Made by a program: the position numbers and the translations under genes. Below, in pieces: positions 1,188 to 28,464 of a stretch of 64,000 nt of DNA (its first letter is position 1; the number at the start of each line of letters is the position of its first letter). This DNA is from Phycisphaerae bacterium. Its GTDB lineage: Bacteria > Planctomycetota > Phycisphaerae > Sedimentisphaerales > Anaerobacaceae. The notes under the pieces are model-generated. The model was not told the DNA's origin. It saw only the letters and a list, made by a program, of their open reading frames with translations, and searched no databases. The DNA is taken from positions 15,162 to 79,161 of the forward strand of contig JAUVVQ010000005.1 of NCBI GenBank assembly GCA_030604525.1, in the 5' to 3' direction.

Positions 1188-2077
1188 TTCCGTCCCTCCT
1201 TCTTGAACATCTCCGGTGCAATTTCTTCCAATGTCTTGGGCTGGAAGTAAAGATCACGTTCAATTGGCAATCCCATCGGACCTCTGACCTCCTCAAGCTC
1301 GCTTAGTAAAAAGTAGCCAAATTCTTTTTCATGGCCGAAAACCAGACCAAAGAATTTGTAATCGACCTCATTCTGCGATTCATCTAATACAGGCTCGCCC
1401 TCAGTTGCCATCCATGTCCAATTTGAGCTCGGGGTGAAGTACTTCGTGAAAACAACCGCTTTGCCGCCTTTGCCATCTTGTGAATATAGAGGTGGCAGCT
1501 GCTCGCGGATTTCCTTTGTCAGCAGCTTCATGCCGCGGATTTTATTGTTGGTAATAACCTTTTTGGCACGCTCAACAGCTACAGTATTACCTGTTGTAAT
1601 TGCACATTGTTTGGGTATGCCGCAGGCAGAAGCTACTCCATATAAGAAGTTGGCCATGTTTTCTGCCTGTTTTTTTCTATCAAGTGGGTCAGATTCGCAA
1701 GCAGGTATTGGTTGTGTCAGAATCTCAACCTGATCAGGTTCGAGTTCAACAACGACCCTTCCATTTTGGGCATACCATTCCCAATACGGATATGAGACAT
1801 AATCTACAGGTTCTCTTCCTGCCGTCATGTCACCGACACTACCCTTTTGTGTTTGAGCAAAGCCATCCATGTATTTTGCCGCCACTTCCAAATCTGCTGA
1901 TTCACCATCTCCACGAAGCCTTATTTTCGCTCCGCGGATGTCCCTGTGGAAGTTGCCTTCCAGGTCAAAAATAACTCTGTCTTTTATACCGGCAAATCTC
2001 ATCCAACCGGCAACTTTGTTTGGGACTGAATTGTCCAAACACGCTTCAATTAAATACTCTGTTGGTCTCCAAGCCAT
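1184..2077 (-). CDS. DUF2958 domain protein (unknown N-terminal half)
   Basis: The C-terminal half (LPPLYSQDGKGGKAVVFTKYFTPSSNWTWMATEGEP...FGLVFGHEKEFGYFLLSELEEVRGPMGLPIERDLYFQP) matches the DUF2958 signature typical of plasmid and ICE genes. Confidence 0.7.
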   Translation of the reverse strand: MAWRPTEYLIEACLDNSVPNKVAGWMRFAGIKDRVIFDLEGNFHRDIRGAKIRLRGDGESADLEVAAKYMDGFAQTQKGSVGDMTAGREPVDYVSYPYWEWYAQNGRVVVELEPDQVEILTQPIPACESDPLDRKKQAENMANFLYGVASACGIPKQCAITTGNTVAVERAKKVITNNKIRGMKLLTKEIREQLPPLYSQDGKGGKAVVFTKYFTPSSNWTWMATEGEPVLDESQNEVDYKFFGLVFGHEKEFGYFLLSELEEVRGPMGLPIERDLYFQPKTLEEIAPEMFKKEGRK

Positions 2078-2185
2078 TTTAATACCTCCAGTTCGTTAAA
2101 AAGTGATGGTACGCTTGCAATGTATAGAACGTGCCATCTGGTTAATTTGGTTGATTACTTTGAATTGAAAACTACAAAACAATGC

Positions 2186-3820
2186 TTACGTGGCAGTGGA
2201 ATCCTTGTAGGGCGATTCGTATGATTTTACCGTTCCATTTTTGTATATGATCGTAATGGCCTCGTTGTCATCGAAGATTATCTGCTTCCAGTCCTTGACA
2301 ACACCGTAAAGGCAGCTTCGTAGCTTTGACCGCAGATACTCAGCGGGACCGATAATTGTCGCCCAGAATTCCTCCATTTCCTGCTCGAAGTAATACAACT
2401 GCGTATCATAAGTATCACCATCCTCATTCCAGCCGCCAAGATGAAACCATATATCGGTTGAACTCAACTGATTTCTGGCTTCAAGCGTGACATACACATT
2501 CATACAGCACCAGCTTCTTTTCTCAGTAGGCTGTTCGAGTACCGCCATAAGTACATCAGACTTGAAAACCTTGCCATCACTTGTATGCACCGCTATTTGA
2601 AGTGAGTCAGTAGCAATAAGCGTTTCGCTCCAGATGCCTTGCTGGCCGAGTTCTTTGCCTACAGCTACCTCGACTTTATTTACAGTAGGCAAATTGGCCC
2701 AACTGTATCCATCATAAGCAGGCCGAATTCTTACAGGAACAAAAGGCTCTTTGAGTTTTCCGGTTGCAGCTAACAGATGTATATTAGCCTCGTCGGTCTC
2801 ACAGCCATCTTCGCAATCCTTGCCCAGCCGGTAACAACTGCTCAGAGGCAAATCATCCGGCTTCGTCACCTCTATTGGCTCTACAACGTCATCGTAGAGC
2901 AACCCTATATCAAATACAGGCTCGGCCTCCGGCAGATCAATGCCAAGTTCCCTGGCACGTTCGTATTCCTTGAAAGGCAATTTATGTGCGCCTTGTTTCT
3001 GTATAAACCGGAATGCCTCGATCTCAATCGCAGCTTTAAGTTCCTCGAAAGCTTTGTTTTCGATAAGCTGTGTTCGTGCCGGAAGCATCAGACGGATACC
3101 TGTCGGATCCCCGGTCATATCCACCAGAAATGTAAGCTCCTGGTCACTTACCGGCGAATTTGTAAAGGAGATCACCTGGCCATGGAAGTTGACCAGAACA
3201 TCGTTGGAATAGTAGCCGTGCCTGAAATGTGTATGCCATTTATTCAGGGTTTTCTTATGGCGTACTTCAACCTTGCAGCCCAGTGCAGGATAATTGGCAG
3301 CATCCTCAGAGCAAAACGATTCCTTGCTACATTGCTGCCCATCAACTGTAGCTGTCAGACCGCTGAAAACAGCATGCTTTTCAACAGTGCCGAATTCCCA
3401 CGGTTCATCCTTGAACACAAGAATTGTACCTTTTATCGATTCGACGTTCTCCACAACCGCGACCGGCTCACCTGTCCAAGCCTTTTCGGTTATGCACACT
3501 TTCCTGTCTCCGCTGCAGATAGTAACTTCCCGCGGTGCCAGGCAAAAGACACCAACTCCTGCAGGATCTTCTGACTTCTCCGTTGCATCGTCCCAGTCCG
3601 AATCGCCGAGATGCAGCAATTTTGAAAAGTCCTCAATCCCACTGCCGTTGTCGCAAACAGTAATGAAACCGTCCTTGTTGATAATGTTTACATGCGTTGC
3701 ACCCGCTCGTCTTGAATTTTGCAGGATTTCAATAATCCTACCGTCCATTGTACCAGTGAACAACCTACTGGCCTTTGTCAGCAGTCTTTCACTGACTTTC
3801 GCACAAATTGTTTCTTGCAT
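2186..3820 (-). CDS. GHKL (Bergerat-fold) ATP-binding protein, 544 aa
   Basis: N-terminal motifs IIEILQNSRRAGATHV (N-box-like), VCDNGSGI (G1) and DPAGVGVF. It is the first gene of a minus-strand operon that also includes the DUF2958 gene. Confidence 0.6.
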   Translation of the reverse strand: MQETICAKVSERLLTKASRLFTGTMDGRIIEILQNSRRAGATHVNIINKDGFITVCDNGSGIEDFSKLLHLGDSDWDDATEKSEDPAGVGVFCLAPREVTICSGDRKVCITEKAWTGEPVAVVENVESIKGTILVFKDEPWEFGTVEKHAVFSGLTATVDGQQCSKESFCSEDAANYPALGCKVEVRHKKTLNKWHTHFRHGYYSNDVLVNFHGQVISFTNSPVSDQELTFLVDMTGDPTGIRLMLPARTQLIENKAFEELKAAIEIEAFRFIQKQGAHKLPFKEYERARELGIDLPEAEPVFDIGLLYDDVVEPIEVTKPDDLPLSSCYRLGKDCEDGCETDEANIHLLAATGKLKEPFVPVRIRPAYDGYSWANLPTVNKVEVAVGKELGQQGIWSETLIATDSLQIAVHTSDGKVFKSDVLMAVLEQPTEKRSWCCMNVYVTLEARNQLSSTDIWFHLGGWNEDGDTYDTQLYYFEQEMEEFWATIIGPAEYLRSKLRSCLYGVVKDWKQIIFDDNEAITIIYKNGTVKSYESPYKDSTAT

Positions 3821-4636: not shown

Positions 4637-5557
4637 TTACGACTTACGTTTTCTAAGAAACAATCCGCCGAGCCCGACAAGTGCTAATGTTGCTGGCTCA
4701 GGAACTACATTTACAGGGATTTGTAAAGAAGTGGTTTCTGTGCCATCAGTAAGATAAAGTGTTGTCAAGTAGTTGCCAGAATCAGAGAAAACATGTTCGA
4801 GTGACAGTGTGCTTGTTTGAATTCCGCTTGTCCAAGTCGAAAGAGAAGGATATTTATCGTGAGGCACAGGTTCCTCATCAAAGGTAGCAGATCCGCTCTG
4901 GTCTGTCTGGCCATCACCGTCCCAGTCGATGTCATATGAGAAAAAAGGGTTGCCATAGTAGTCTCTGTCAACATACCTGGACCACCATGATGAGCTTTTA
5001 TCTTCAAATTCTAGGCCAAGACTGACAGTTAGTCCTGTGGTTGCTGAACTTTGCAAATACGTTCTTGGAGCATAATTTCGCCAGAGAGATACTTGCGAAA
5101 CAGCCGAAAGGGTCGCCACAATGCCTGAGCCGGTGTCAACCATCTCACTATGTCTCACTAAGTCAGCCAGATAGGCATTTCCCCCTGGTTCAGCCGGGCA
5201 ATCCCATACTTGGGGCGATTGAAAATTCATCGTTGCTGTTATGCTTTCTAATGAAGAAAGTTCGCTGCTTTGCCAGTCTATGATCATTGAACCATCTTCG
5301 AGGTATTCAATCCCGTCGGAAGCACTACACCCAACAACTGTTCCGGTCAACCCCAAAGAATCGGAAGCAATGAAACTTGAATATCGTGTACTCGGACGAA
5401 CTAAAGTGTAGCCGATAGTTGAATTAAAACTACAGTTATATTCGGTAATATCATAGGTTGCTCTGGCTGGCGAAATACCAATTCCGCTTACATCAGAAAC
5501 CATACAGAGGGTTGTTAAGAGTATAAAATTAAATGCTAATAATTCTTTTTTCATCAT
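4637..5557 (-). CDS. PEP-CTERM sorting-domain secreted protein
   Basis: N-terminal signal peptide. C-terminal VPEPATLALVGLGGLFLRKRKS (PEP motif, TM segment, basic tail). Confidence 0.8.
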   Translation of the reverse strand: MMKKELLAFNFILLTTLCMVSDVSGIGISPARATYDITEYNCSFNSTIGYTLVRPSTRYSSFIASDSLGLTGTVVGCSASDGIEYLEDGSMIIDWQSSELSSLESITATMNFQSPQVWDCPAEPGGNAYLADLVRHSEMVDTGSGIVATLSAVSQVSLWRNYAPRTYLQSSATTGLTVSLGLEFEDKSSSWWSRYVDRDYYGNPFFSYDIDWDGDGQTDQSGSATFDEEPVPHDKYPSLSTWTSGIQTSTLSLEHVFSDSGNYLTTLYLTDGTETTSLQIPVNVVPEPATLALVGLGGLFLRKRKS

Positions 5558-5571
5558 CTCACTCTATTAAA

Positions 5572-6294
5572 TTAAATTTGTCGTTTTCTAAAAATTAAAC
5601 CGCCTAAACCCAGCAAGAACAATGTTGCCGGTTCCGGGATTGTTGCTAATTCAAAATTACCTACCCGAAAGGTTGTGTCTTGGCAGGAAGGGATATCTAT
5701 TTCTATAAAGAATTTGTCAACTCCACTAGAGGGGACATCCAACATACCAGCCCAAATGATTTCTCTATCGATATAGGCAGCTATATATTCTCCTGAACTG
5801 TCTAAAAGCATAGCGACTTCGTGAGCGGTATCGCCCTTGGATACAGTATGTTGTACGCCATCAAGCATATCGTAAGTGCCTTCAGAATTTCTATATCCTA
5901 TAGAAATATAGTTGTTCCTAATATTTCCCGGTTCAGGAAAAAATCCTATGTAAGCCTCTAAGTTGCTAGAAAGCTGCATGCCGATTACATTTTTGCCCCA
6001 ACTCGTTAGGCTATAATCGTCAGTTTCCAAGGAAATATCTGCCCTTATTCCTCTTATATCTTCCTCTGGAACTGATGCATATTGGTAAAGTGATGCTCCC
6101 CATTGATACGTTGCCATAGAACGCAAATTCCATGCCCCGTCTCTGCTTGTTACCTCTACATTATATGTTGGAACACGGAAATCCCACTTGTTAAAGTTGC
6201 CACAATCATCATACATTGTCCAGATTGTTGCATTTGTTATCGGAGTCAATACTACCAGCAATAACAAAACGCATAGCGTAATCATTTTTCTCAT
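5572..6294 (-). CDS. PEP-CTERM sorting-domain secreted protein
   Basis: N-terminal signal peptide. C-terminal IPEPATLFLLGLGGLIFRKRQI. Confidence 0.8.
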   Translation of the reverse strand: MRKMITLCVLLLLVVLTPITNATIWTMYDDCGNFNKWDFRVPTYNVEVTSRDGAWNLRSMATYQWGASLYQYASVPEEDIRGIRADISLETDDYSLTSWGKNVIGMQLSSNLEAYIGFFPEPGNIRNNYISIGYRNSEGTYDMLDGVQHTVSKGDTAHEVAMLLDSSGEYIAAYIDREIIWAGMLDVPSSGVDKFFIEIDIPSCQDTTFRVGNFELATIPEPATLFLLGLGGLIFRKRQI

Positions 6295-6331
6295 TTATAC
6301 GTTCCCTTCTGATTTTAAGTTGACTATTTTG

Positions 6332-6961
6332 TTATAAATACAACCGGTCTAAGGCCTTTTTAATTTCGGGCAGCATTACATCCGCATAAACCTGGGTTGT
6401 TGTAATTTTTGCGTGTCCCAGTTGTTTCTGTACAAGGCGAAGATTCCAGTTGCTCGCTTTTAACAAAAAGCACGCGTATGTGTGCCTCAGGCAGTGAATC
6501 GAATAATGCAGAGGCAGGTCTGCTCTTTGTGCACATCGCTTAAATGCTTTCTGTATAGCTCTGGTCGTCATGTGTCCTCCGGTATTGCTGGATAACAATA
6601 ATGGCTGAGCGGCTTCTGTCGATTCGCCGATACTTTGTTTCCATGCCAGATATTCCTTACAATGCTGTTTGAATGGGCCGTTAAAAAAGACCCTTCTTTT
6701 TTTATTGCCTTTGCCGTTTTTTACCAGCAGCGACGGGAGCGTGTCATCTGTGCTGAGATCGTCGCAATTCAGTGCCACCATTTCCATTACCCGAAGGCCG
6801 GTTGCCAGGCCCAGATGGATAATAAAGTAATCCCTTACAGCGGTTTTCTTTTCCTTTGGATAGGCAGATTCCGCTCTGTTTTTGGCAACAGCCAGCAGTT
6901 TCTCCGCATCCTTCCTTGGCAGAAACTTCTTGGGATCAAGCTCCCAGGAATTTGATTTCAT
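6332..6961 (-). CDS. Tyrosine recombinase/integrase, short form (catalytic domain only)
   Basis: Catalytic residues in order: GLRVME (Arg), KGNKKR (Lys), HCLRHT (His-x-x-Arg), GHAKI (His), QVYADV (Tyr). Confidence 0.85.
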   Translation of the reverse strand: MKSNSWELDPKKFLPRKDAEKLLAVAKNRAESAYPKEKKTAVRDYFIIHLGLATGLRVMEMVALNCDDLSTDDTLPSLLVKNGKGNKKRRVFFNGPFKQHCKEYLAWKQSIGESTEAAQPLLLSSNTGGHMTTRAIQKAFKRCAQRADLPLHYSIHCLRHTYACFLLKASNWNLRLVQKQLGHAKITTTQVYADVMLPEIKKALDRLYL

Positions 6962-7277
6962 TCTTTTTCAGGCATCATGTCCTCCTTTCATATTTGGTGT
7001 GAAATATGAACTTATTTGACAAGGAAATATGGGCTTAAATACTTTTTGGATAAGGAGATACAACGACAAAGAGCGGGCTTTGTTTGGCGAAAAACTTCTT
7101 CGGGAAAAAGGCATGATTTGACAAATTTGAAACGCAAAATCGCTGAAAAAATGTTTTTATCGACGATTTTTTAGGAAAAAATTTTGAAATGACAATAAAA
7201 AAAGGTTCAGAAAACACACCTTATCTGAACCTTTGACTTTAATTGTAGCATATTTGCTTTTGGATTTCAAGCATTTC

Positions 7278-7306
7278 TTGACAATAACTGCTATCTAATT
7301 ATAATT
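7278..7306 (+). promoter_or_regulatory. Sigma70-like promoter for the HTH/methyltransferase operon
   Basis: TTGACA (7278-7283), 17-nt spacer, ATAATT (7301-7306), about 55 nt upstream of the ATG at 7361. Confidence 0.4.
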
Positions 7307-7360
7307 ACTGGAACTTCCCGTTTTAGGGTAAATATGTTTTATGGCTGGAGATAACGCTGT

Positions 7361-7558
7361 ATGTCAAAAAAACAGGACATTTTAACTATTGACGAGCTTT
7401 CCAAGTATCTGAAAATTCCTAAGTCTACTGTATACAAACTTTGTCAGGAAGGGAAGGTGCCAGGGCAAAAAGTTGGAAGACATTGGCGGTTCCACAAGGA
7501 AGTCATTGATAGTTGGATTAAAGAAGGTAGTTCTGCTTCTGGTAGCAATAAACGATAG
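7361..7558 (+). CDS. Excisionase/MerR-type helix-turn-helix protein (65 aa)
   Basis: LTIDELSKYLKIPKSTVYKLCQEGKVPGQKVGRHWRF matches the HTH_17/Xis-like pattern. The gene is divergent from the integrase. Confidence 0.8.
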   Translation: MSKKQDILTIDELSKYLKIPKSTVYKLCQEGKVPGQKVGRHWRFHKEVIDSWIKEGSSASGSNKR

Positions 7559-7606
7559 CTCTAATTTTGAGTGAAATGATATGATTATATTTGTAGTGAG
7601 ATTGAT

Positions 7607-8806
7607 ATGCCGAAGAGCTTAAAATACATCGATCTGTTTGCGGGGTGCGGCGGGCTATCGTTGGGACTATTCAATTCAAGTTGGCGAGGTATCTTTGCCA
7701 TAGAAAAAGATGCTATGGCTTTTGAAACCTTAAACCACAATCTAGTTGAACAAAAGAACCATTTTGATTGGCCAGATTGGTTACCAAAGACATGTCATGA
7801 TATAGATGAATTGTTGGAAGACTATCGTGAAAATCTTGAAGCCCTAAGCGGAGAGATAGATTTAGTTGTAGGTGGCCCACCTTGCCAGGGCTTTTCTATG
7901 GCTGGAAAGAGAAAAGAAAGTGATGCACGTAACAAACTAATTCACTCATATATTCAATTTGTTGATTATGTCAGACCTCGTGTAATATTATTTGAAAATG
8001 TAAAAGGCTTTACTCTAGGTTTTACCAAGAATGGCAAGCAGGGACAGCCATATTCAGATGTTGTCCTAAGTAGCTTAAAGGAGTTAGGGTATAGTGATGT
8101 TAGGGGTGAGTTAATAAATTTCGCTAAATTTGGAGTGCCCCAAAGAAGGGAGCGTTTTATTATAATAGGTACTCTTGATGGCAATGCAGACCACTTTTTT
8201 AGTAACTTATTGGCAAACCGGCAAAAGTTTTTGTCGGCAAAAAAATTAAAATCAAATATAGGTGTGAGATTAGCGATTTCGGATTTGAAAGAATCAAGTG
8301 GCTTAGTTGATTGTCCCGACACCCCAGGATTCAAATCAGGGCGATATATTTCTCCTAGAAATAATTATCAAAAATTACTTCGTAAATATGTCAATAAGAC
8401 GGCCATTCCCGACAGCCACCGTTTTGTAAATCATCGTCCAAATACTATCGACATTTATAAAAACCTTTTGAGCCGGGCAGAACGAAATATATCTGTAAAT
8501 GATGCTCTGAGGGAGGAACTTGGCATTAGTAAACGAAATGTAACCGTATTAGACAGCACAAAACCATCTCCAACATTGATGAGCATACCCGATGATTATG
8601 TCCATTACTGTGAACCAAGGGTGTTGACGGTTAGGGAATATGCCCGGATACAGTCTTTTCCTGATTGGTATAGATTTAAAGGCAATTATACAACCGGTGG
8701 AAAACGTAGAGCAAATGAGGTACCCCGTTATACCCAGGTTGGTAATGCAATTCCCCCGTTGTTTGCTGAACATGCCGGTAATATTCTAAAGGAGTTGTTA
8801 GATTAG
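7607..8806 (+). CDS. DNA (cytosine-5)-methyltransferase
   Basis: Motif I DLFAGCGGLSLG, motif IV GGPPCQGFS, motif VI LFENVKGF, motif VIII QRRERFII, motif X GNAIPP. Confidence 0.95.
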   Translation: MPKSLKYIDLFAGCGGLSLGLFNSSWRGIFAIEKDAMAFETLNHNLVEQKNHFDWPDWLPKTCHDIDELLEDYRENLEALSGEIDLVVGGPPCQGFSMAGKRKESDARNKLIHSYIQFVDYVRPRVILFENVKGFTLGFTKNGKQGQPYSDVVLSSLKELGYSDVRGELINFAKFGVPQRRERFIIIGTLDGNADHFFSNLLANRQKFLSAKKLKSNIGVRLAISDLKESSGLVDCPDTPGFKSGRYISPRNNYQKLLRKYVNKTAIPDSHRFVNHRPNTIDIYKNLLSRAERNISVNDALREELGISKRNVTVLDSTKPSPTLMSIPDDYVHYCEPRVLTVREYARIQSFPDWYRFKGNYTTGGKRRANEVPRYTQVGNAIPPLFAEHAGNILKELLD

Positions 8807-13251: not shown

Positions 13252-15294
13252 ATGAACAACTTTGGTGATAAGGTCAGTTTTATATGGAGCGTAGCTGACT
13301 TGCTTCGCGGGCCGTATAAGCCAAATCAGTACAGGGACGTAATGTTGCCTCTCACCGTGCTGCGGCGTCTGGACTGTGTACTGGAACCGACTAAAGGCAA
13401 GGTGCTGGCCAAACTAAACGCCCTAAAAGGCGGCTCTGTCAAGAATATCGAGCCGATTCTTAACCGTGCTGCGGGGCAGCAATTTCACAATACCAGTTTG
13501 CTTGATTTTAACAAACTTAAAGGCGATCCCAATAATATCGCAGCTAACCTGGTTAGTTATACTAAAGGCTTTTCTTCAAAGGCACGCGAGGTAATAGAGT
13601 ATTTCGATTTTGAGCCCCATATCGAGAAGCTGGACAATGCCAATCGCCTGTACTTGGTGGTTAAAAAATTTGCAGAAATCGACCTGCATCCTGATGTTGT
13701 TTCCAATACAGAGATGGGTTACATCTTTGAAGAGCTTATTCGCAAGTTTAACGAAGCAGCCAACGAGGAAGCCGGTGACCATTTCACCCCTCGTGAGGTC
13801 ATCCGTCTTATGGTCAACCTGCTTTTTTCTCAGGATAATGCAATCCTGACCACAAAGGGTATCGTAAGAACTCTCTACGACCCTGCGTGTGGTACAGGTG
13901 GTATGTTGTCGGTTTCAGATGAATATCTTCGTGAGCTAAATCCAGATGCTCGACTCGAAGTTTACGGCCAGGAATATAATCGATTTGCATATGCAACCTG
14001 TGGCTCGGATATGATAATTAAAGGCCAAAGCCTTGAAAATATTAAATTCGGCGACACATTCGGCGATGGTAAAACCTCTGACGGTCTGCCACGTCATAAG
14101 TTTGATTATATGCTGGCAAATCCGCCATTTGGTGTTGAATGGAAGCCAGAGGCAGATGAGGTCAGAAAAGAATACGACCAGCAGGGTTTTACCGGCAGAT
14201 TTGGGGCTGGAGTTCCCCGGATTAACGATGGGTCGTTCCTGTTCCTACAGCATATGATATCCAAAATAAAGCCTGTAAAAGATGGCGGCAGCCGTATTGG
14301 AATAGTATTCAATGGCTCACCTTTGTTTACCGGCGATGCGGGTTCTGGCGAATCAAATATTCGCCAATGGATTATAGAACATGATTGGCTTGAAGCCATA
14401 ATCGCTATGCCCGACCAGTTGTTTTACAATACCGGCATATTTACATATATCTGGATAGTTACCAACCGCAAGGAGAAGAAACGTAGAGGTAAAATTCAGC
14501 TTATCAATGCTGTTGAGTTTTATCAGAAAATGCGAAAGAGCCTTGGCAACAAGCGTAATGAGATTGGCGACGGACAAAATGGACGACCGAACCACATTGC
14601 AGAAATTACTCGTATTTATGGCGAATTTAAGGAATCAAAATACAGCAAGATATTCAACAACGATGATTTTGGCTTTCGCAAAATAACTGTTGAAAGGCCG
14701 CTCAAGTTAAGCTTTCAGGCAACTGCTGAGCGCATTAAATCTCTAATGGAGACAAAAGCTTTTGTTAATCTGGCTAAGTCCAAAAGGAAAAAAGGTTCTA
14801 AGATAGCCTTGGCTGAAATAGAAGCAGGACAAAAGTTGCAGGCCGACATTCTTGAAGCTTTGAAAACGCTTGATGCCGACAAGATTTACAAAAACCGTGA
14901 TGCTTTTGATAAAGACCTGGCTGTTGCGATGAAAGCTGCAGATATCAAGCTGCCTGCCCCAGTCAAAAAGGCGATTCTAAACACTCTTTGCGAACGGGAC
15001 GAGACAGCTGATGTTTGCACAGACAAAAAAGGTAACCCTGAGCCGGATACCGAGCTTAGAGACTATGAAAATGTGCCGTTAAAGGAGGATATTTACGAAT
15101 ACTTCAAACGTGAAGTTCTGCAGCACGTACCCGATGCATGGATTGACGAGAGTAAGACCAAGGTTGGCTACGAGATACCTCTAAACCGGCACTTCTATGA
15201 ATATACCCCGCCAAGACCACTTGCAGATATTGAGTCTGATATTAAGGCCCTCGAAGGAGACATCGTAAAAATGCTGGGGGAGGTGACAGGATGA
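13252..15294 (+). CDS. hsdM: Type I restriction-modification methyltransferase subunit
   Basis: N-terminal HsdM-type region, motif I DPACGTGGML, motif IV LANPPFGVEW. Operon context with hsdS and hsdR. Confidence 0.95.
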   Translation: MNNFGDKVSFIWSVADLLRGPYKPNQYRDVMLPLTVLRRLDCVLEPTKGKVLAKLNALKGGSVKNIEPILNRAAGQQFHNTSLLDFNKLKGDPNNIAANLVSYTKGFSSKAREVIEYFDFEPHIEKLDNANRLYLVVKKFAEIDLHPDVVSNTEMGYIFEELIRKFNEAANEEAGDHFTPREVIRLMVNLLFSQDNAILTTKGIVRTLYDPACGTGGMLSVSDEYLRELNPDARLEVYGQEYNRFAYATCGSDMIIKGQSLENIKFGDTFGDGKTSDGLPRHKFDYMLANPPFGVEWKPEADEVRKEYDQQGFTGRFGAGVPRINDGSFLFLQHMISKIKPVKDGGSRIGIVFNGSPLFTGDAGSGESNIRQWIIEHDWLEAIIAMPDQLFYNTGIFTYIWIVTNRKEKKRRGKIQLINAVEFYQKMRKSLGNKRNEIGDGQNGRPNHIAEITRIYGEFKESKYSKIFNNDDFGFRKITVERPLKLSFQATAERIKSLMETKAFVNLAKSKRKKGSKIALAEIEAGQKLQADILEALKTLDADKIYKNRDAFDKDLAVAMKAADIKLPAPVKKAILNTLCERDETADVCTDKKGNPEPDTELRDYENVPLKEDIYEYFKREVLQHVPDAWIDESKTKVGYEIPLNRHFYEYTPPRPLADIESDIKALEGDIVKMLGEVTG

Positions 15295-23828: not shown

Positions 23829-24134
23829 ATGGCACTCATAGCAAATTTAAGGCATTATCTTGGCGATGATCTAAGCCTGGTGAAAATTCCCGCACCCGCA
23901 GCAACATTAAGGGAGTTCATGGGCTGTTTGGTGGAAGCCGTTACCCTAAGAGACCCCGATGACGAAAATTATGTTACATCGCTAAAATGTCGGCATGGCT
24001 GTGATGGCGATATTATTGTTTTTTTTGACCCAAACGATCCTTCGCCTATCAAGTGGTCTTGCTTCTTCTGCAAAGATGAAGGTCAGCTTACCGGATGGGA
24101 AGGAACTGTCTGGGACAAAAGTTCCGGTCAGTAA
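23829..24134 (+). CDS. Hypothetical Cys-containing small protein (101 aa)
   Basis: ORF only. No domain recognised. Confidence 0.3.
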   Translation: MALIANLRHYLGDDLSLVKIPAPAATLREFMGCLVEAVTLRDPDDENYVTSLKCRHGCDGDIIVFFDPNDPSPIKWSCFFCKDEGQLTGWEGTVWDKSSGQ

Positions 24135-24329: not shown

Positions 24330-24607
24330 ATGAAAACTCGACCTTGGACAATGCTGTTAATGATGCTAGTAGGTTGGATGAATCGGCAGCAACAGGAAGT
24401 TATCGAATACTTAAAAGCTGAGAATGGCATACTCAGAGATGAATTATTAAAGGCAAAATATATGAAACTTATGAGGATGGCAAAAAAGATATTTTCAATT
24501 ACACCGAGGTGTTCTATAATCGTAAACGAAGACATGCTTCGCTGGGCTATGTAAGCCCAGTCGTATATGAGGAAATGCATGAAATGAAACAGGGTCGGGC
24601 GGCATAA
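24330..24607 (+). pseudogene. Chimeric transposase remnant: N-terminus of an rve-type transposase joined to the C-terminal tail of an IS3-family OrfB
   Basis: MKTRPWTMLLMMLVGWMNRQQQEVIEYLKAENGILR parallels the N-terminus of the intact transposase at 26945. From about 24464, a different frame reads DIFNYTEVFYNRKRRHASLGYVSPVVYEE, which is the IS3 OrfB tail. Confidence 0.6.
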
Positions 24608-24674
24608 TTGGCAAGTCAAGTGTCCGCCATCTGTTTGGCACCTCATTTTTGTGATTGTATAAACAACAAAAGGG

Positions 24675-26039
24675 TTGCAAGGTATGACAAAACACCACGA
24701 GTATTGGCAAACAGGTATTACCGAGTTGGATAAATTATTATTTGAAGGGCGTGGATTTAGAAGGGGAAGGGGATATATCATATCTGGACCTTCTCAATCA
24801 GGAAAAACTATCCTCGCAATGTGTTTAGTGAGAAATATAATCAAACAGGGTGGTGCAATCACATATATGACAATGGGTAGATCAGCAAAAGACCTTGTGG
24901 AATTGTATCAAGCATTCAATATAGATATTAATAACTATTTGGAGGCGATGTGTTTAGTAATCCTTGATTGGTCCACAATCAAAGCTGGTGGTAATATCAA
25001 GCGAACCAAAAGGGAATTGGAAAAATATCTTTCCAAGAAGGCTATTGCCAACATAAGATTTTGTACCGACCCATGCAGCAAAGAGGAGTTTATTGGCAAA
25101 ATTAATGAAATTCATGAAGAAAAGGCGAGGTTTCATGGCAAGCCAGGAGTTGGAGTTGTAGATGCTATCTCCGAGCAAATAGTGCAACTGAGCAGGAAAG
25201 GACTTCCTGGGGCTATTGTTTCGGAAATATATTTAGCTGCCCGGCAGAGGTTCTCGATGGAAGAACCTGGTACCGCTTTCCATCTATTTTCACCATTGGA
25301 AGAACGTGTGGGCTGTGAATATTCAGTGCTCATAGAGGATCTACATCTCAATGAGGATGGAACAATAAACTTGGCACTTGAATTTAATGATGGAGGTGAA
25401 GTCAAAAATAGGAACATGTGGGTACGCTCTCTATATGGAGGCAAAGCTCCAAGTAAAAAACTTAATTTTGAAATCAATGTTGAAGACATAATTAGAATAA
25501 TAGATCCTGTGAACCAGTCAAATGAAATGGAATGTATGCGAGTTAGTAATTTATCAAAATCTGCGCGGCTTATTGAAATCCATGAAATAGATGAATTTCA
25601 AAATATCAGAAGTATTTCTAAAGCCAACATAACGGAACGTGATATTGCTAATATCAGGTGCCTAGATGAAGCAAGAGAGTTAGAACGGTATATCCGAGAT
25701 ATTTTGAATGATTCAAATGTGACTCCTCATGGGCCTACGGAGATTGCGGATATCTTAACAACATGCGTTCATGTGAAAGGAGAAGGGAGAATCGCTGCTT
25801 TTATTTTAAAAGGAAAAAGTTATAAGAAGGTTACAAGCAGGGATGTAACTCATCAATTCGCCAAGGTTCGACAAATACAGGGTATTGGCCTAATGGTCCT
25901 AGTTGCAGTGGGACATATTCATGATGATGCAAAAAGAGATTTTTTTCAGGCTGCTCAAGATGCAGGATGTGACTATCTTATTATTGATACGAGGAATTGC
26001 TGGCGTCTATTAGTTGCCTATGGAAAAATCAGTCCATAA
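24675..26039 (+). CDS. KaiC/RecA-like P-loop ATPase fused to a C-terminal Mrr-like (PD-(D/E)XK) nuclease domain
   Basis: N-terminus: TGITELDKLLFEGRGFRRGRGYIISGPSQSGKTILAM (RecA/KaiC-type Walker A context). C-terminus: HGPTEIADIL...AAFILKGKSYKKVTSRDVTHQF...LMVLVAVGHIHDDAKRDFFQAAQDAGCDYLIIDTRNCWRLL follows the Mrr_cat pattern. Confidence 0.55.
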   Translation: MQGMTKHHEYWQTGITELDKLLFEGRGFRRGRGYIISGPSQSGKTILAMCLVRNIIKQGGAITYMTMGRSAKDLVELYQAFNIDINNYLEAMCLVILDWSTIKAGGNIKRTKRELEKYLSKKAIANIRFCTDPCSKEEFIGKINEIHEEKARFHGKPGVGVVDAISEQIVQLSRKGLPGAIVSEIYLAARQRFSMEEPGTAFHLFSPLEERVGCEYSVLIEDLHLNEDGTINLALEFNDGGEVKNRNMWVRSLYGGKAPSKKLNFEINVEDIIRIIDPVNQSNEMECMRVSNLSKSARLIEIHEIDEFQNIRSISKANITERDIANIRCLDEARELERYIRDILNDSNVTPHGPTEIADILTTCVHVKGEGRIAAFILKGKSYKKVTSRDVTHQFAKVRQIQGIGLMVLVAVGHIHDDAKRDFFQAAQDAGCDYLIIDTRNCWRLLVAYGKISP

Positions 26040-26108
26040 AACATCAAACTATAAAAAAATCTCAGCTAACAACAAAACCTTTATATATGTTGAAAGGAAA
26101 ATTTTATT

Positions 26109-26753
26109 ATGAGCAATGATAAAGAAATATTTGAAAAAATATATGAACAAGGAGCAGTCTGGACAGAATCCGAGCCACCTAAAGAATTGGTAAATTTAAT
26201 TCAGAGTGGAAAAGTTAAACCATGCAAGGTTCTTGATGTTGGATGTGGCGAAGGATTCTATGCTATTTATTTGGCTTCAAAAGGTTTTGAGGTAACAGGA
26301 ATAGACATATCAGAAAATGCTATAAAACTAGCAAAAGGAAATGCGGCGACACAAGGCGTAAAAATCAAATTTATGCCTCTTGATGTTGCAAATTTAGATA
26401 AAATAAATGACAAATTTGATTTTGTATTTGAATGGGCAATTTTGCATCATATAATCCCCGAGCAAAGACAAAAATATGTAGAGAACATTAAGGGGATTTT
26501 GAATAAAGATGGGAAGTATCTATCTGTTTGTTTTAATGATCAAAACCCTGACTTTGGACAGAAAGGCAAAAAATTAAGAATAATTCCTGAAGGTGCAAAA
26601 ATGCCTGCTGGCACAAGATTATATTATTCATCCCTTGAAGAAATGAAAATCTTATTTGAAACACATTTTCGTACAATTGATTCCAAACTGATTAAGATGA
26701 CAGCTGGTGGAAAAGAACATATTGGCAACTATTTTTTTATAGAAAAATACTAG
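26109..26753 (+). CDS. Class I SAM-dependent methyltransferase (small-molecule type)
   Basis: Motif I VLDVGCGEGFYAIYLASKG, then EVTGIDISENAI. Size and layout fit a Methyltransf_11/25-like enzyme. Confidence 0.8.
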   Translation: MSNDKEIFEKIYEQGAVWTESEPPKELVNLIQSGKVKPCKVLDVGCGEGFYAIYLASKGFEVTGIDISENAIKLAKGNAATQGVKIKFMPLDVANLDKINDKFDFVFEWAILHHIIPEQRQKYVENIKGILNKDGKYLSVCFNDQNPDFGQKGKKLRIIPEGAKMPAGTRLYYSSLEEMKILFETHFRTIDSKLIKMTAGGKEHIGNYFFIEKY

Positions 26754-26944: not shown

Positions 26945-28006
26945 ATGAAAATAAAACCTTACACAATGCTGTTGGTGATGATGGCAGGATGGCTAAACAG
27001 ACATCAGCAGGATGTGATTGAGTACCTCAAAGAAGAAAACAAGATTCTACGGGAAAAACTTGGTAACAAGCGAATACTTCTCAATGATAGTCAAAAAATG
27101 CATTTGTCTCGCTTGGGCAAGCGTTTAGGCAGAAAAGTATTAGAAGACGCCTGCTGTATATTTTCCCCAGACACAGTTCTCCGCTGGCATAGGTCCTTGG
27201 TTGCCCGGAAGTATGATGGATCAAAAAACCGTAAGCCCGGCAGAAAACGAATCACCTTGGAACTGGAACAACTCATCATCATGTTGGCCCGAAAGAATAA
27301 GACATGGGGTTCCCGTAGAATTAAGGGTGCGTTAAAGTATCTGGGCTACAAGATTTGCCATACTACGATTGATAACGTCCTTAAGCGGAATGGTTATGAT
27401 CCCAGTCCAGACCGAGGTAGAAAAACAAGATGGTCGGAATTCCTGAAATCCCATTGGGAGTCCCTTGCAGCTATCGATTTTTTCACGGTCGAAATTTATA
27501 CGTTGGCTGGCTTAACACGATATTATGTCCTTGTCTGTATTGATTATGCTACTCGTAAAGTTGAAATTGTAGGAATATCTCAGCAGCCATACGGTGATTG
27601 GATGAACCAAATGGCTCGCAATCTGACAGACCCATTTGAAGGATTTCTAAAGGGCAAGAAATACATTATCCACGATAGAGACCCTTTGTTCAGTAAAGAG
27701 TTTCGTCAGATATTGAAGTCCTCTGGGGTTAGACCAATCCGAACGCTCCCTATGTCACCTCATTTAAATTGTCTGATTGAAAGGTTCGTCCGGACCATAA
27801 AAAGTGAGTGTCTAAATCGGATGCTCATCTTCGGAGAACGTCATTTAGAATATTTGACCAATGAATTCGTTCAGCATTATCATAAAGAGCGAGCACATCA
27901 AGGTCTTGACAATGAAATCATCGAACCTCCTCCCCAGGGAACAGGAGAAATAGTCTGTCAGGAGCGGCTTGGCGGGCTGTTGAAATTCTACAGGAGGGCC
28001 GCTTAA
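26945..28006 (+). CDS. DDE (rve/integrase-core) transposase, IS481/IS3-like, apparently intact
   Basis: N-terminal HTH region, then D (AAIDFF), D (IHDRDPLF) and E (LIERFVRTIK), with a C-terminal YHKERAHQGL. Terminal inverted repeats were not identified. Confidence 0.8.
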   Translation: MKIKPYTMLLVMMAGWLNRHQQDVIEYLKEENKILREKLGNKRILLNDSQKMHLSRLGKRLGRKVLEDACCIFSPDTVLRWHRSLVARKYDGSKNRKPGRKRITLELEQLIIMLARKNKTWGSRRIKGALKYLGYKICHTTIDNVLKRNGYDPSPDRGRKTRWSEFLKSHWESLAAIDFFTVEIYTLAGLTRYYVLVCIDYATRKVEIVGISQQPYGDWMNQMARNLTDPFEGFLKGKKYIIHDRDPLFSKEFRQILKSSGVRPIRTLPMSPHLNCLIERFVRTIKSECLNRMLIFGERHLEYLTNEFVQHYHKERAHQGLDNEIIEPPPQGTGEIVCQERLGGLLKFYRRAA

Positions 28007-28392: not shown

Positions 28393-28464
28393 AGCCAACG
28401 GTCGGATTCGAACCGACAACCCCTGGTTTACAAAACCAGAGCTCTACCATTGAGCTACGTTGGC
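28393..28464 (-). tRNA. tRNA-Thr (anticodon UGU), 72 nt, no encoded CCA
   Basis: Cloverleaf read by hand. Acceptor stem GCCAACG/CGTTGGC. D arm GCTC-AATGGTA-GAGC. Anticodon arm CTGGT-TTTGTAA-ACCAG. T arm GTCGG-TTCGAAT-CCGAC. Discriminator U. Confidence 0.85.

Follow-up and report, generated by a model that had tools for sequence, protein, structure and literature searches.

The 64,000-nucleotide stretch of Phycisphaerae contig JAUVVQ010000005.1 analyzed here (the window) carries, within a defence island, a gene encoding a KaiC-like ATPase fused to a domain with a restriction endonuclease (REase) fold. We read this gene as an orphaned member of an apparently undescribed conflict system, composed of a methyltransferase and a KaiC-effector protein, and as a remnant clipped by insertion sequences (IS), with a probability of roughly 0.56. 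Judged by sequence, the two-gene family is rare and horizontally mobile and its role probably anti-viral. An earlier, sequence-only reading of the window had pictured the gene as a single-protein NTPase-nuclease defence effector, brought in as mobile cargo together with the methyltransferase gene that follows it. Comparison with relatives led to a different picture of both the protein's partner and its neighbor.

A KaiC-like ATPase joined to a restriction endonuclease fold

The open reading frame (ORF) spans 24675-26039 (+) and encodes 454 aa when counted from the TTG at 24675. In the database, the identical protein (P0001) is called with 451 aa, starting at ATG 24684, three codons further downstream, and since the relatives align from the same ATG this is probably the true start. 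Residues are therefore numbered from ATG 24684. The architecture is a single-domain KaiC/RecA-like ATP-binding module (aa 1-275), followed by a variable linker and an Mrr/MspJI-type REase-fold domain. The motifs quoted in the sequence-only reading, TGITELDKLL...GYIISGPSQSGKTILAM, HGPTEIADIL, AAFILKGKSYKKVTSRDV and YLIIDTRNCWRLL, were all found in place.

The RecA/KaiC-style P-loop that had been recognized in the N-terminal half was borne out by the Pfam KaiC family PF06745, which matched with 61.9 bits against a gathering cut-off of 26.6, by a RecA-type fold in Foldseek and by invariant Walker A and B motifs. The PF06745 match covers only protein residues 12-118 and profile positions 2-107 of 231. 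Using the AlphaFold model of the whole protein, Foldseek returned KaiC hexamer subunits and PH0284 at about E 1e-10 with TM-scores of 0.55-0.68 (target-normalised). The mean predicted local distance difference test (pLDDT) of this model is 67.8; aa 161-226 (~65 residues) were not confidently modelled, though they are conserved, and pLDDT falls below 50 for aa 276-292 in the linker region. In the phmmer alignment to KaiC, FSFEE lies opposite MTMGR, so that Gly-Arg replaces the catalytic Glu pair across 17 family members. As the module lacks this pair, we infer that it is more likely an ATP-binding switch than a motor or an efficient hydrolase. Circadian KaiC proper was considered and rejected as an identification, because the protein has a single ATPase domain and scores only 22-37 bits with the NCBIfam KaiC equivalogs, whose cut-offs are 408-546.

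The C-terminal 155 residues, modelled alone by AF2 with 40 homologues, gave a pLDDT of 89.7 and a pTM of 0.87. The best PDB matches of this model in Foldseek were AspBHI, EcoT38I, an Avs4 chain (8dgf_B) and MspJI, with probabilities of 0.92-0.99, E-values of 1e-3 to 3e-2 and TM-scores of 0.38-0.50; RPB5 was also among the matches. By its predicted model, the C-terminal half thus does fold as a PD-(D/E)XK (REase) domain, which was the fold check that the sequence-only reading had suggested. Its top Pfam match, Mrr_cat (PF04471), stays below threshold (13 bits against a cut-off of 21, E 0.11), while the nuclease domain of another family member reaches Mrr_cat with E 1.8e-4. Aligned by hhalign with 17 true Mrr_cat segments from related genomes, the domain is colinear over 107 columns with a score of 20.2 (P 0.013). 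The real score is barely above that of the best among 30 column-shuffled controls (19.8 over 24 columns) and is distinguished by its full-length colinear coverage. In this alignment the FE...D...K...(I)D..L elements line up with those of Mrr_cat, and K376-G-K378 lies opposite Q-x-K. Across 91 diverse domain sequences, E329, H349, E353, D356, K376, Q391 and D414 are conserved at 92-100%.

Other searches for a nuclease family were negative. The Pfam scan of the whole protein gave no nuclease-domain match at E 0.1 or better, the NCBIfam scan returned ATPase/P-loop-type families only and no nuclease family, and a 26-sequence profile of the nuclease domain matched no PDB sequence even at E 10. A search of the window's genome with Mrr_cat at a limit of E 1e-8 also came up empty. 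Of the Mrr-type C-terminus that had been claimed, the REase fold therefore stands, on the model, Foldseek and hhalign, while Mrr_cat membership by the Pfam threshold does not, and the nuclease activity is putative.

Relatives exchange their C-terminal domains

Relatives were gathered from a search of 5.8 billion proteins, complemented by an exhaustive representative search. Four full-length relatives, 65-72% identical, display the same fusion plus about 20 more residues that make up a CPxDG...CxxGH zinc knuckle. About 14 proteins share the N-terminal module only (57-74% identity) and continue with other C-termini, and more than 200 share the nuclease module only. The family alignment places the switch point between C-termini at aa 275-295. 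In P0007 the C-terminus is a TIR domain (Pfam TIR_2; PADLOC ThsB, 9e-63) and in P0009 a PNP_UDP_1 nucleosidase domain (PADLOC CBASS-type effector, 1e-13); other relatives carry a ~130-aa domain ending in a hydrophobic (transmembrane) helix, or a short basic tail. The family defined by the N-terminal module is small, forming three clusters at 50% identity in the exhaustive representative search. Two distant KaiC-like ATPases with 25-30% identity, P0233 and P0256, carry a fused cytidine deaminase domain or EAD1 (Effector-associated domain 1), which suggests that KaiC-effector fusions form a broader class.

The nuclease module behaves as a shuffled domain, which proteins of 140 to 1549 aa carry at either terminus or internally. 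Most commonly it occupies the N-terminus of a separate, widespread family of 451-aa proteins (P0020-P0120; loci L013-L018), whose genes stand alone in variable neighborhoods and whose named members include Methanothrix, Thermoplasmatales and Parageobacillus. In these proteins the REase-like module and the zinc knuckle come first and are followed by a ~280-aa unknown domain. They have no match in Pfam, NCBIfam or PADLOC and may be single-gene restriction-like enzymes.

Named sources of the relatives are Desulfobacterales, Pirellulales and Hodarchaeota, a patchy distribution over bacteria and archaea. Only one GTDB representative, a Pirellulales metagenome-assembled genome, holds a close relative, and the module was not found in 300 other genomes sampled in the window's phylum. 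Genes next to several of the relatives encode a Ppl-like ATPase (1.7e-32), DUF4062/PDC-S60, a HerA-like ATPase, EVE/NucS, ArdC, PrimPol and transposases. These mobile-element and defence-type neighbors, the scattered sources and the absence from the 300 genomes disfavor a housekeeping role. The neighborhoods of the homologues, whose inspection the sequence-only reading had called for, thus point to defence and mobile elements rather than to conserved housekeeping contexts. Together with the swappable TIR, PNP and nuclease C-termini and the sporadic distribution, they speak for the defence-type role it had assigned. On one of the contigs with a relative (L003, 447 kb), a second KaiC-like ATPase, fused to a helix-turn-helix and a cupin domain, is encoded a few kb upstream; the contig also encodes an EVE/NucS-domain protein (coordinates for this protein and the second ATPase: 1719-3011, 5484-6401).

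A 333-aa methyltransferase gene precedes the ATPase gene

In 9/9 relative lineages with readable upstream DNA, which cover the nuclease, PNP, transmembrane-tail and short-tail types, a gene for a 333-aa methyltransferase lies directly upstream of the ATPase gene. In eight of the nine, its stop and the ATPase start share 4 bp (ATGA), suggesting translational coupling; in L011 the two genes are separated by 2 nt. The description of the window protein as a single-protein effector is not upheld by these loci, as the window copy has lost a gene that accompanies the ATPase in all of them.

The 333-aa protein contains the domains Dimerisation (PF08100) and Methyltransf_2 (PF00891), that is, a winged helix and a class I S-adenosylmethionine (SAM) methyltransferase. 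Its nearest solved relatives are DsyB, the 4-methylthio-2-hydroxybutyrate (MTHB) S-methyltransferase (1e-42), RedM and other natural-product methyltransferases. From this relationship it is assigned to the small-molecule 'O-methyltransferase family 2' kind and is DsyB-like, and a methyl mark, if there is any, is therefore unlikely to be placed on DNA. The enzyme belongs to a distinct clade, with 35 clusters at 54% identity or above followed by a gap to 42% or below.

The association is asymmetric, on small numbers. In the relatives the effector gene was never seen without the methyltransferase, whereas the methyltransferase did turn up with no complete effector gene beside it. In neither of two look-ups made from the 333-aa methyltransferase was a complete KaiC gene present; in one the methyltransferase was followed by unrelated genes and in the other by remnants of a KaiC start. 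At L033, on the contig that also holds L034, the partner methyltransferase gene is present in two identical copies (7001-8060 and 13810-14811), 6.8 kb apart. Each is followed by a remnant of about 15 codons, M-K-R-L-C-R-Y-Q-R-T-G-C-P and a stop, that resembles the N-terminus of the KaiC module, which indicates decay in the direction opposite to that of the window copy. At L032 (8296-10171) what comes after a methyltransferase of the partner clade is not a KaiC-effector but a GMT-wHTH and a DUF5131 protein, an arrangement that may represent a different pairing.

Both ends of the window copy are clipped

In blastn, the window DNA matches that of the relatives only over 24673-26030, with the left edge at 24673-24678. 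Upstream, the place of the 333-aa methyltransferase gene is taken by IS debris, and no match to this methyltransferase was found in the window's genome (2.35 Mb, 82% complete). At the other end, the zinc-knuckle tail CPxDG...CxxGH is replaced by AT-rich DNA; a knuckle Cys is Ser and the protein ends in ...YGKISP. The knuckle is kept in 4/4 full-length relatives and in nearly all members of the 451-aa family. As the window copy lacks this tail, its activity is doubtful.

The state of the ORF was judged by a leave-one-out count at invariant positions, since the nearest relative is 75% identical in nucleotides, a distance at which synonymous sites would be saturated in a dN/dS estimate (ratio of nonsynonymous to synonymous substitution rates). 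At nuclease positions conserved at 90-95% or above the window copy shows zero changes. At ATPase positions invariant in the other 16 members it differs at 9/102, all conservatively; the same count gives 0-4 changes in most relatives and 14 in the outgroup. D438N was considered as a lesion and dismissed: Asp438 is 88% conserved family-wide, but Asn also occurs in 2/4 of the closest relatives, and the change gives no sign of decay. By these comparisons the window copy reads as a recent orphan or remnant.

The class I SAM methyltransferase gene noted by the sequence-only reading 69 nt past the ATPase-nuclease stop was confirmed (Methyltransf_25 8e-22, TehB 5e-15). Its small-molecule character was equally supported, as the 214-aa enzyme has small-molecule and toxin methyltransferases as its nearest solved relatives, namely a Methanosarcina methyltransferase and toxin or thiol methyltransferases. 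It is probably not the partner of the family. Compared with the true 333-aa partner it shows 25% identity over 89 aa (E 0.006), confined to the SAM-binding motif. The GC content of its gene is 0.30-0.32, against 0.38-0.40 for the ATPase-nuclease gene, and its DNA homology is confined to its own ORF (26106-26748); from the different GC content and the separate homology limits it follows that the two genes differ in origin. Genes of Aenigmarchaeota and other DPANN-type contigs and of one bacterial contig are 85% identical to it in protein and 86-88% in DNA, and no KaiC neighbor lies beside the homologues in two other contexts examined, each on two contigs. The 214-aa enzyme is thus probably a separately acquired, promiscuously transferred neighbor unrelated to the ATPase, and its gene looks like a gene-sized unit that moves between domains of life.

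Delivery of the two genes as a cargo pair, which their position between IS pieces had suggested, is not supported in view of these differences in GC content, of homology that ends at each gene's own ORF and of the occurrence of the 214-aa gene elsewhere in unrelated contexts. The IS pieces themselves are as described, with debris on both sides and an intact transposase at 26945-28006, whose NCBIfam IS481 match (108.6 bits) is below the cut-off. The remnant at 24330-24607 is indeed chimeric: about 32 codons resemble the start of the neighboring transposase, after which another frame reads FYNRKRRHASLGY...SP, a tail typical of IS3 OrfB. A Pfam scan of the 74-aa ORF in this remnant gave no match. 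The left remnant and the right-hand IS share 71% identity over 88-95 nt only, and a composite transposon with the pair as its cargo is not supported, as the flanking pieces are not two copies of one element.

Setting in a defence island

The island spans 6332-28464 (~22 kb) and contains, in this order, a 5-methylcytosine (m5C) methylase cassette, a Type I restriction-modification (R-M) operon with passengers and, at its tRNA-proximal end, the ATPase-nuclease locus (Table 1). No repeat of the tRNA 3' end was detected in the window at up to 3 mismatches, and the position of the left attachment (att) site was not identified. A 101-aa Cys-rich ORF (23829-24134; CRHGCDG...WSCFFCKDEG), located between hsdR and the IS scar, has no Pfam, NCBIfam or PADLOC match.

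PADLOC, which had been put forward as a check on the proposed effector, matched no system-specific model. On the ATPase it gave P-loop-level matches only, namely Csx3-AAA with 18 bits and mad8 with 16 bits (E 0.0016). A MADS system was considered and rejected. The mad2 match covers only residues 25-188 of the 214-aa methyltransferase and was read as generic SAM-domain similarity, the mad8 match is a generic P-loop, and there was no other mad match in the four neighboring proteins scanned.

Table 1 Features of the ATPase-nuclease locus and the boundaries of its island (window coordinates).
Feature	Position	Strand	Evidence
Tyrosine recombinase, left island boundary	6332..6961	-	Pfam Phage_integrase, 1.2e-28
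Chimeric transposase remnant (IS481-like start + IS3 OrfB tail)	24330..24607	+	Sequence comparison
5' junction	24608..24683	+	Similar to the 3' end of the relatives' partner gene in only the final ~11-17 nt ahead of the ATG; unrelated further upstream
KaiC-like ATPase + REase-fold fusion gene, 451 aa	24684..26039	+	ORF, gene call P0001, relatives' alignment
KaiC/RecA-like P-loop module, aa 1-275	24684..25508	+	Pfam PF06745, Foldseek, family alignment
Walker A GPSQSGKT	24786-24809	+	Invariant GKT in 17 family members
'GR' at the place of the KaiC catalytic Glu pair	24876-24881	+	Invariant in 17 members
Walker B VILDW	24954-24971	+	LDW/ILDW invariant in 17 family members
Variable linker, junction where relatives switch C-terminal domains	25509..25571	+	Conservation lost after ~aa 275
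Helical lead-in + REase-fold (Mrr/MspJI-like) domain, aa 297-451	25572..26036	+	AF2 model, Foldseek, sub-threshold Mrr_cat
E353	25740-25742	+	Invariant in family
D356	25749-25751	+	Invariant in family
K376	25809-25811	+	Invariant in family
3' breakpoint	26030..26040	+	DNA alignment, blastn limits, protein alignment
214-aa class I SAM methyltransferase (TehB/TPMT-like)	26109..26753	+	Pfam and NCBIfam matches
Intact rve-family (IS481/IS3-like) transposase	26945..28006	+	Pfam rve_3, HTH_32, rve
tRNA-Thr(TGT), right island boundary	28393..28464	-	ARAGORN

Proposed mechanism and alternative explanations

The complete two-gene system would be an NTP-gated device that acts against mobile elements or by abortive infection. 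Its KaiC-like module would bind ATP and oligomerise like other KaiC/RecA rings, and oligomerisation would switch on whichever effector is attached. The 333-aa methyltransferase may be a regulatory or self-protective subunit, a role we assign because the effector is not seen without it while the reverse is, as with the orphan methylases of R-M systems. Candidate targets of methylation are a metabolite or the ATPase itself; alternatively nothing would be methylated and the methyltransferase would serve as a SAM sensor. In the window, an IS-mediated rearrangement would have removed the methyltransferase gene, leaving at most ~11-17 nt of it, and a second event would have swapped the zinc-knuckle tail for AT-rich DNA bearing the unrelated 214-aa methyltransferase. 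A bolder version of this proposal, which we offer tentatively as a possible but speculative extension, is a new kind of immune system in which a KaiC-like ring ATPase with interchangeable killing domains receives its 'self' or 'all is well' signal from a small-molecule or protein methyltransferase. It would follow R-M logic, or guard the SAM supply, with a methyl mark on something other than DNA, and the window copy would be an 'orphan restriction subunit' disarmed by the loss of its knuckle.

Several points weigh against an orphaned member of a methyltransferase and KaiC-effector system. The defence label is drawn from domain content and neighborhood only, PADLOC-DB v2 gives no system-level match for the locus, and the role given to the methyltransferase is one that we purely infer. 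Few lineages were sampled, and the asymmetry between methyltransferase and effector comes from two look-ups. By sequence the nuclease call is weak (Mrr_cat 13 against 21 bits, Foldseek E ~1e-3, TM-scores 0.4-0.5), and the position two before the invariant K376 is a hydrophobic Val or Ile, which departs from the canonical (D/E/Q)xK. With a genome that is 82% complete, the partner methyltransferase could sit in unassembled DNA. Moreover, the intact ORF and the fully conserved nuclease residues could mean that the protein is active without partner or tail.

This last point leads to the view that the window protein is a self-sufficient NTPase-nuclease effector, working without either the upstream methyltransferase or the zinc-knuckle tail. 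An uninterrupted ORF with intact Walker A, Walker B and E353/D356/K376 fits this view, as do the lack of changes at conserved nuclease positions, the purely conservative ones in the ATPase module, the location in a defence island and the promoter-like hexamers in the IS remnant just upstream. The 451-aa family also shows the nuclease module working in other, stand-alone settings. We nevertheless consider such autonomy unlikely, because the methyltransferase lies directly upstream in every readable lineage, nearly always overlapping, and because the C...C..GH knuckle is kept by all full-length relatives and nearly the whole 451-aa family. In addition, homology that ends exactly at the ORF ends is what a fragment left by rearrangement would show. 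Another possibility is that the family is not defensive. It may instead serve in signalling or regulation through its KaiC-like module, or mobile elements may carry it as a toxin-antitoxin-like addiction cassette; the REase-fold domain would perhaps bind rather than cut. KaiC-like ATPases are widely seen as archaeal signalling hubs, according to an excerpt of PMC13700489, and REase folds act as non-catalytic modules in RPB5, itself among the fold matches. The departure from the (D/E/Q)xK motif and the relatives located on mobile elements with ArdC, PrimPol or transposases point the same way. Against it, a TIR (ThsB-like) or PNP domain in the same slot is a hallmark killing or NAD/nucleotide-degrading effector, and the near-invariance of E353, D356, K376, H349 and Q391 across the 91 domain sequences fits an enzyme. 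The patchy distribution over bacteria and archaea and the absence from the sampled phylum genomes also count against it, and we hold a non-defensive role to be quite improbable.

The gene downstream raises a further reading, a non-orthologous replacement in which the 214-aa methyltransferase took over the role of the lost 333-aa partner, and 24684-26753 would be a working variant with reversed gene order. The family evidently needs a SAM-dependent methyltransferase of small-molecule type, and the 214-aa gene lies close by in the same orientation, no strong terminator separating it from the ATPase-nuclease gene. By our own estimate a SAM methyltransferase would be found directly downstream by chance for only a few per cent of genes, which also weighs against an orphaned remnant. 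However, the two methyltransferases have only the generic SAM-binding motif in common, the 214-aa enzyme lacks the winged helix and the substrate-binding half, and its close homologues (85% identical) are found in unrelated contexts without a KaiC-like gene. GC content and homology limits show a separate origin, and the insertion that brought the 214-aa gene is the same event that cut off the zinc knuckle. Replacement is thus very improbable, and we favor the orphaned, IS-clipped member of a methyltransferase and KaiC-effector system.

Significance and comparison with known systems

Swappable-effector NTPase scaffolds, such as Avs, HerA-Sir2 and the effectors of CBASS and Thoeris, are a central theme of prokaryotic immunity. 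The literature search found no report of RecA-like ATPases of the KaiC branch in this role, and none in which the obligatory partner is a small-molecule methyltransferase resembling DsyB. Full texts described no KaiC-effector fusion in defence; the 2017 survey of KaiC-like ATPases (Makarova et al., mBio) was outside the search, and a prior mention there is possible. Kaur et al. 2020 do not mention KaiC. If defence is confirmed, the system would add a new sensor or regulator logic, methylation of a non-DNA target. Moreover, two sizeable groups that lack any match in Pfam, NCBIfam and PADLOC, the 451-aa nuclease-module proteins and the KaiC-effectors, would gain a function. For this genome the meaning is more modest: the gene would be a clipped leftover and a record of how defence modules at the edge of an island are taken apart by IS traffic.

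Among known systems, the Avs4/AVAST STAND NTPases (PDB 8dgf) resemble the window protein in combining a P-loop NTPase and a REase-fold effector in one polypeptide, in using one NTPase scaffold with alternative effector domains and in their defence-island location. An Avs4 chain is also among the best structural matches of the C-terminal domain (TM-score 0.50, query-normalised; probability 0.98). In contrast, the NTPase here is of the RecA/KaiC class rather than STAND, there is no TPR sensor array, and no PADLOC Avs model matched. The Avs4 effector is N-terminal, whereas the effector here is C-terminal and the system has an obligatory partner gene for a methyltransferase of small-molecule type. 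Sir2-HerA and DUF4297-HerA likewise couple a RecA-fold ring ATPase to an NADase or nuclease effector, with the partners encoded in adjacent genes. Activation of their effector is proposed to take place inside an oligomer, according to excerpts of PMC11514289 and PMC13434337. HerA however belongs to the FtsK-HerA clade and not to KaiC, its effector is a separate protein, and there is no methyltransferase.

The single-domain KaiC-like ATPases PH0284, SSO2452 and ArlH/FlaH share the fold and the Walker motifs, and the PF06745 gathering score is passed. The window family differs from them in matching the first 107/231 profile positions only, in carrying Gly-Arg for the Glu pair and in its fusion to conflict-type effectors. 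With the Type IV enzymes Mrr, MspJI and AspBHI, the C-terminal domain shares the REase fold, for which they are among the best PDB matches, and its conserved elements fall in the Mrr_cat register. Unlike these enzymes, the window domain stays below the Pfam threshold and has Val/Ile rather than Gln/Glu two before the invariant Lys; in the family, the domain is also extended by a helical subdomain at the N-terminus and a zinc knuckle at the C-terminus, and a modified-base reader domain is absent. Finally, classical R-M offers a parallel in logic only, in that a methyltransferase gene is tightly coupled to the gene of a dangerous enzyme and may occur alone, while the dangerous partner alone is not seen. 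Here the methyltransferase is of a DsyB-like O/S-methyltransferase family and not a DNA methylase. An NTPase with swappable effectors is a well-known design; what appears to be new is the use of KaiC as the scaffold and of a small-molecule methyltransferase as the partner.

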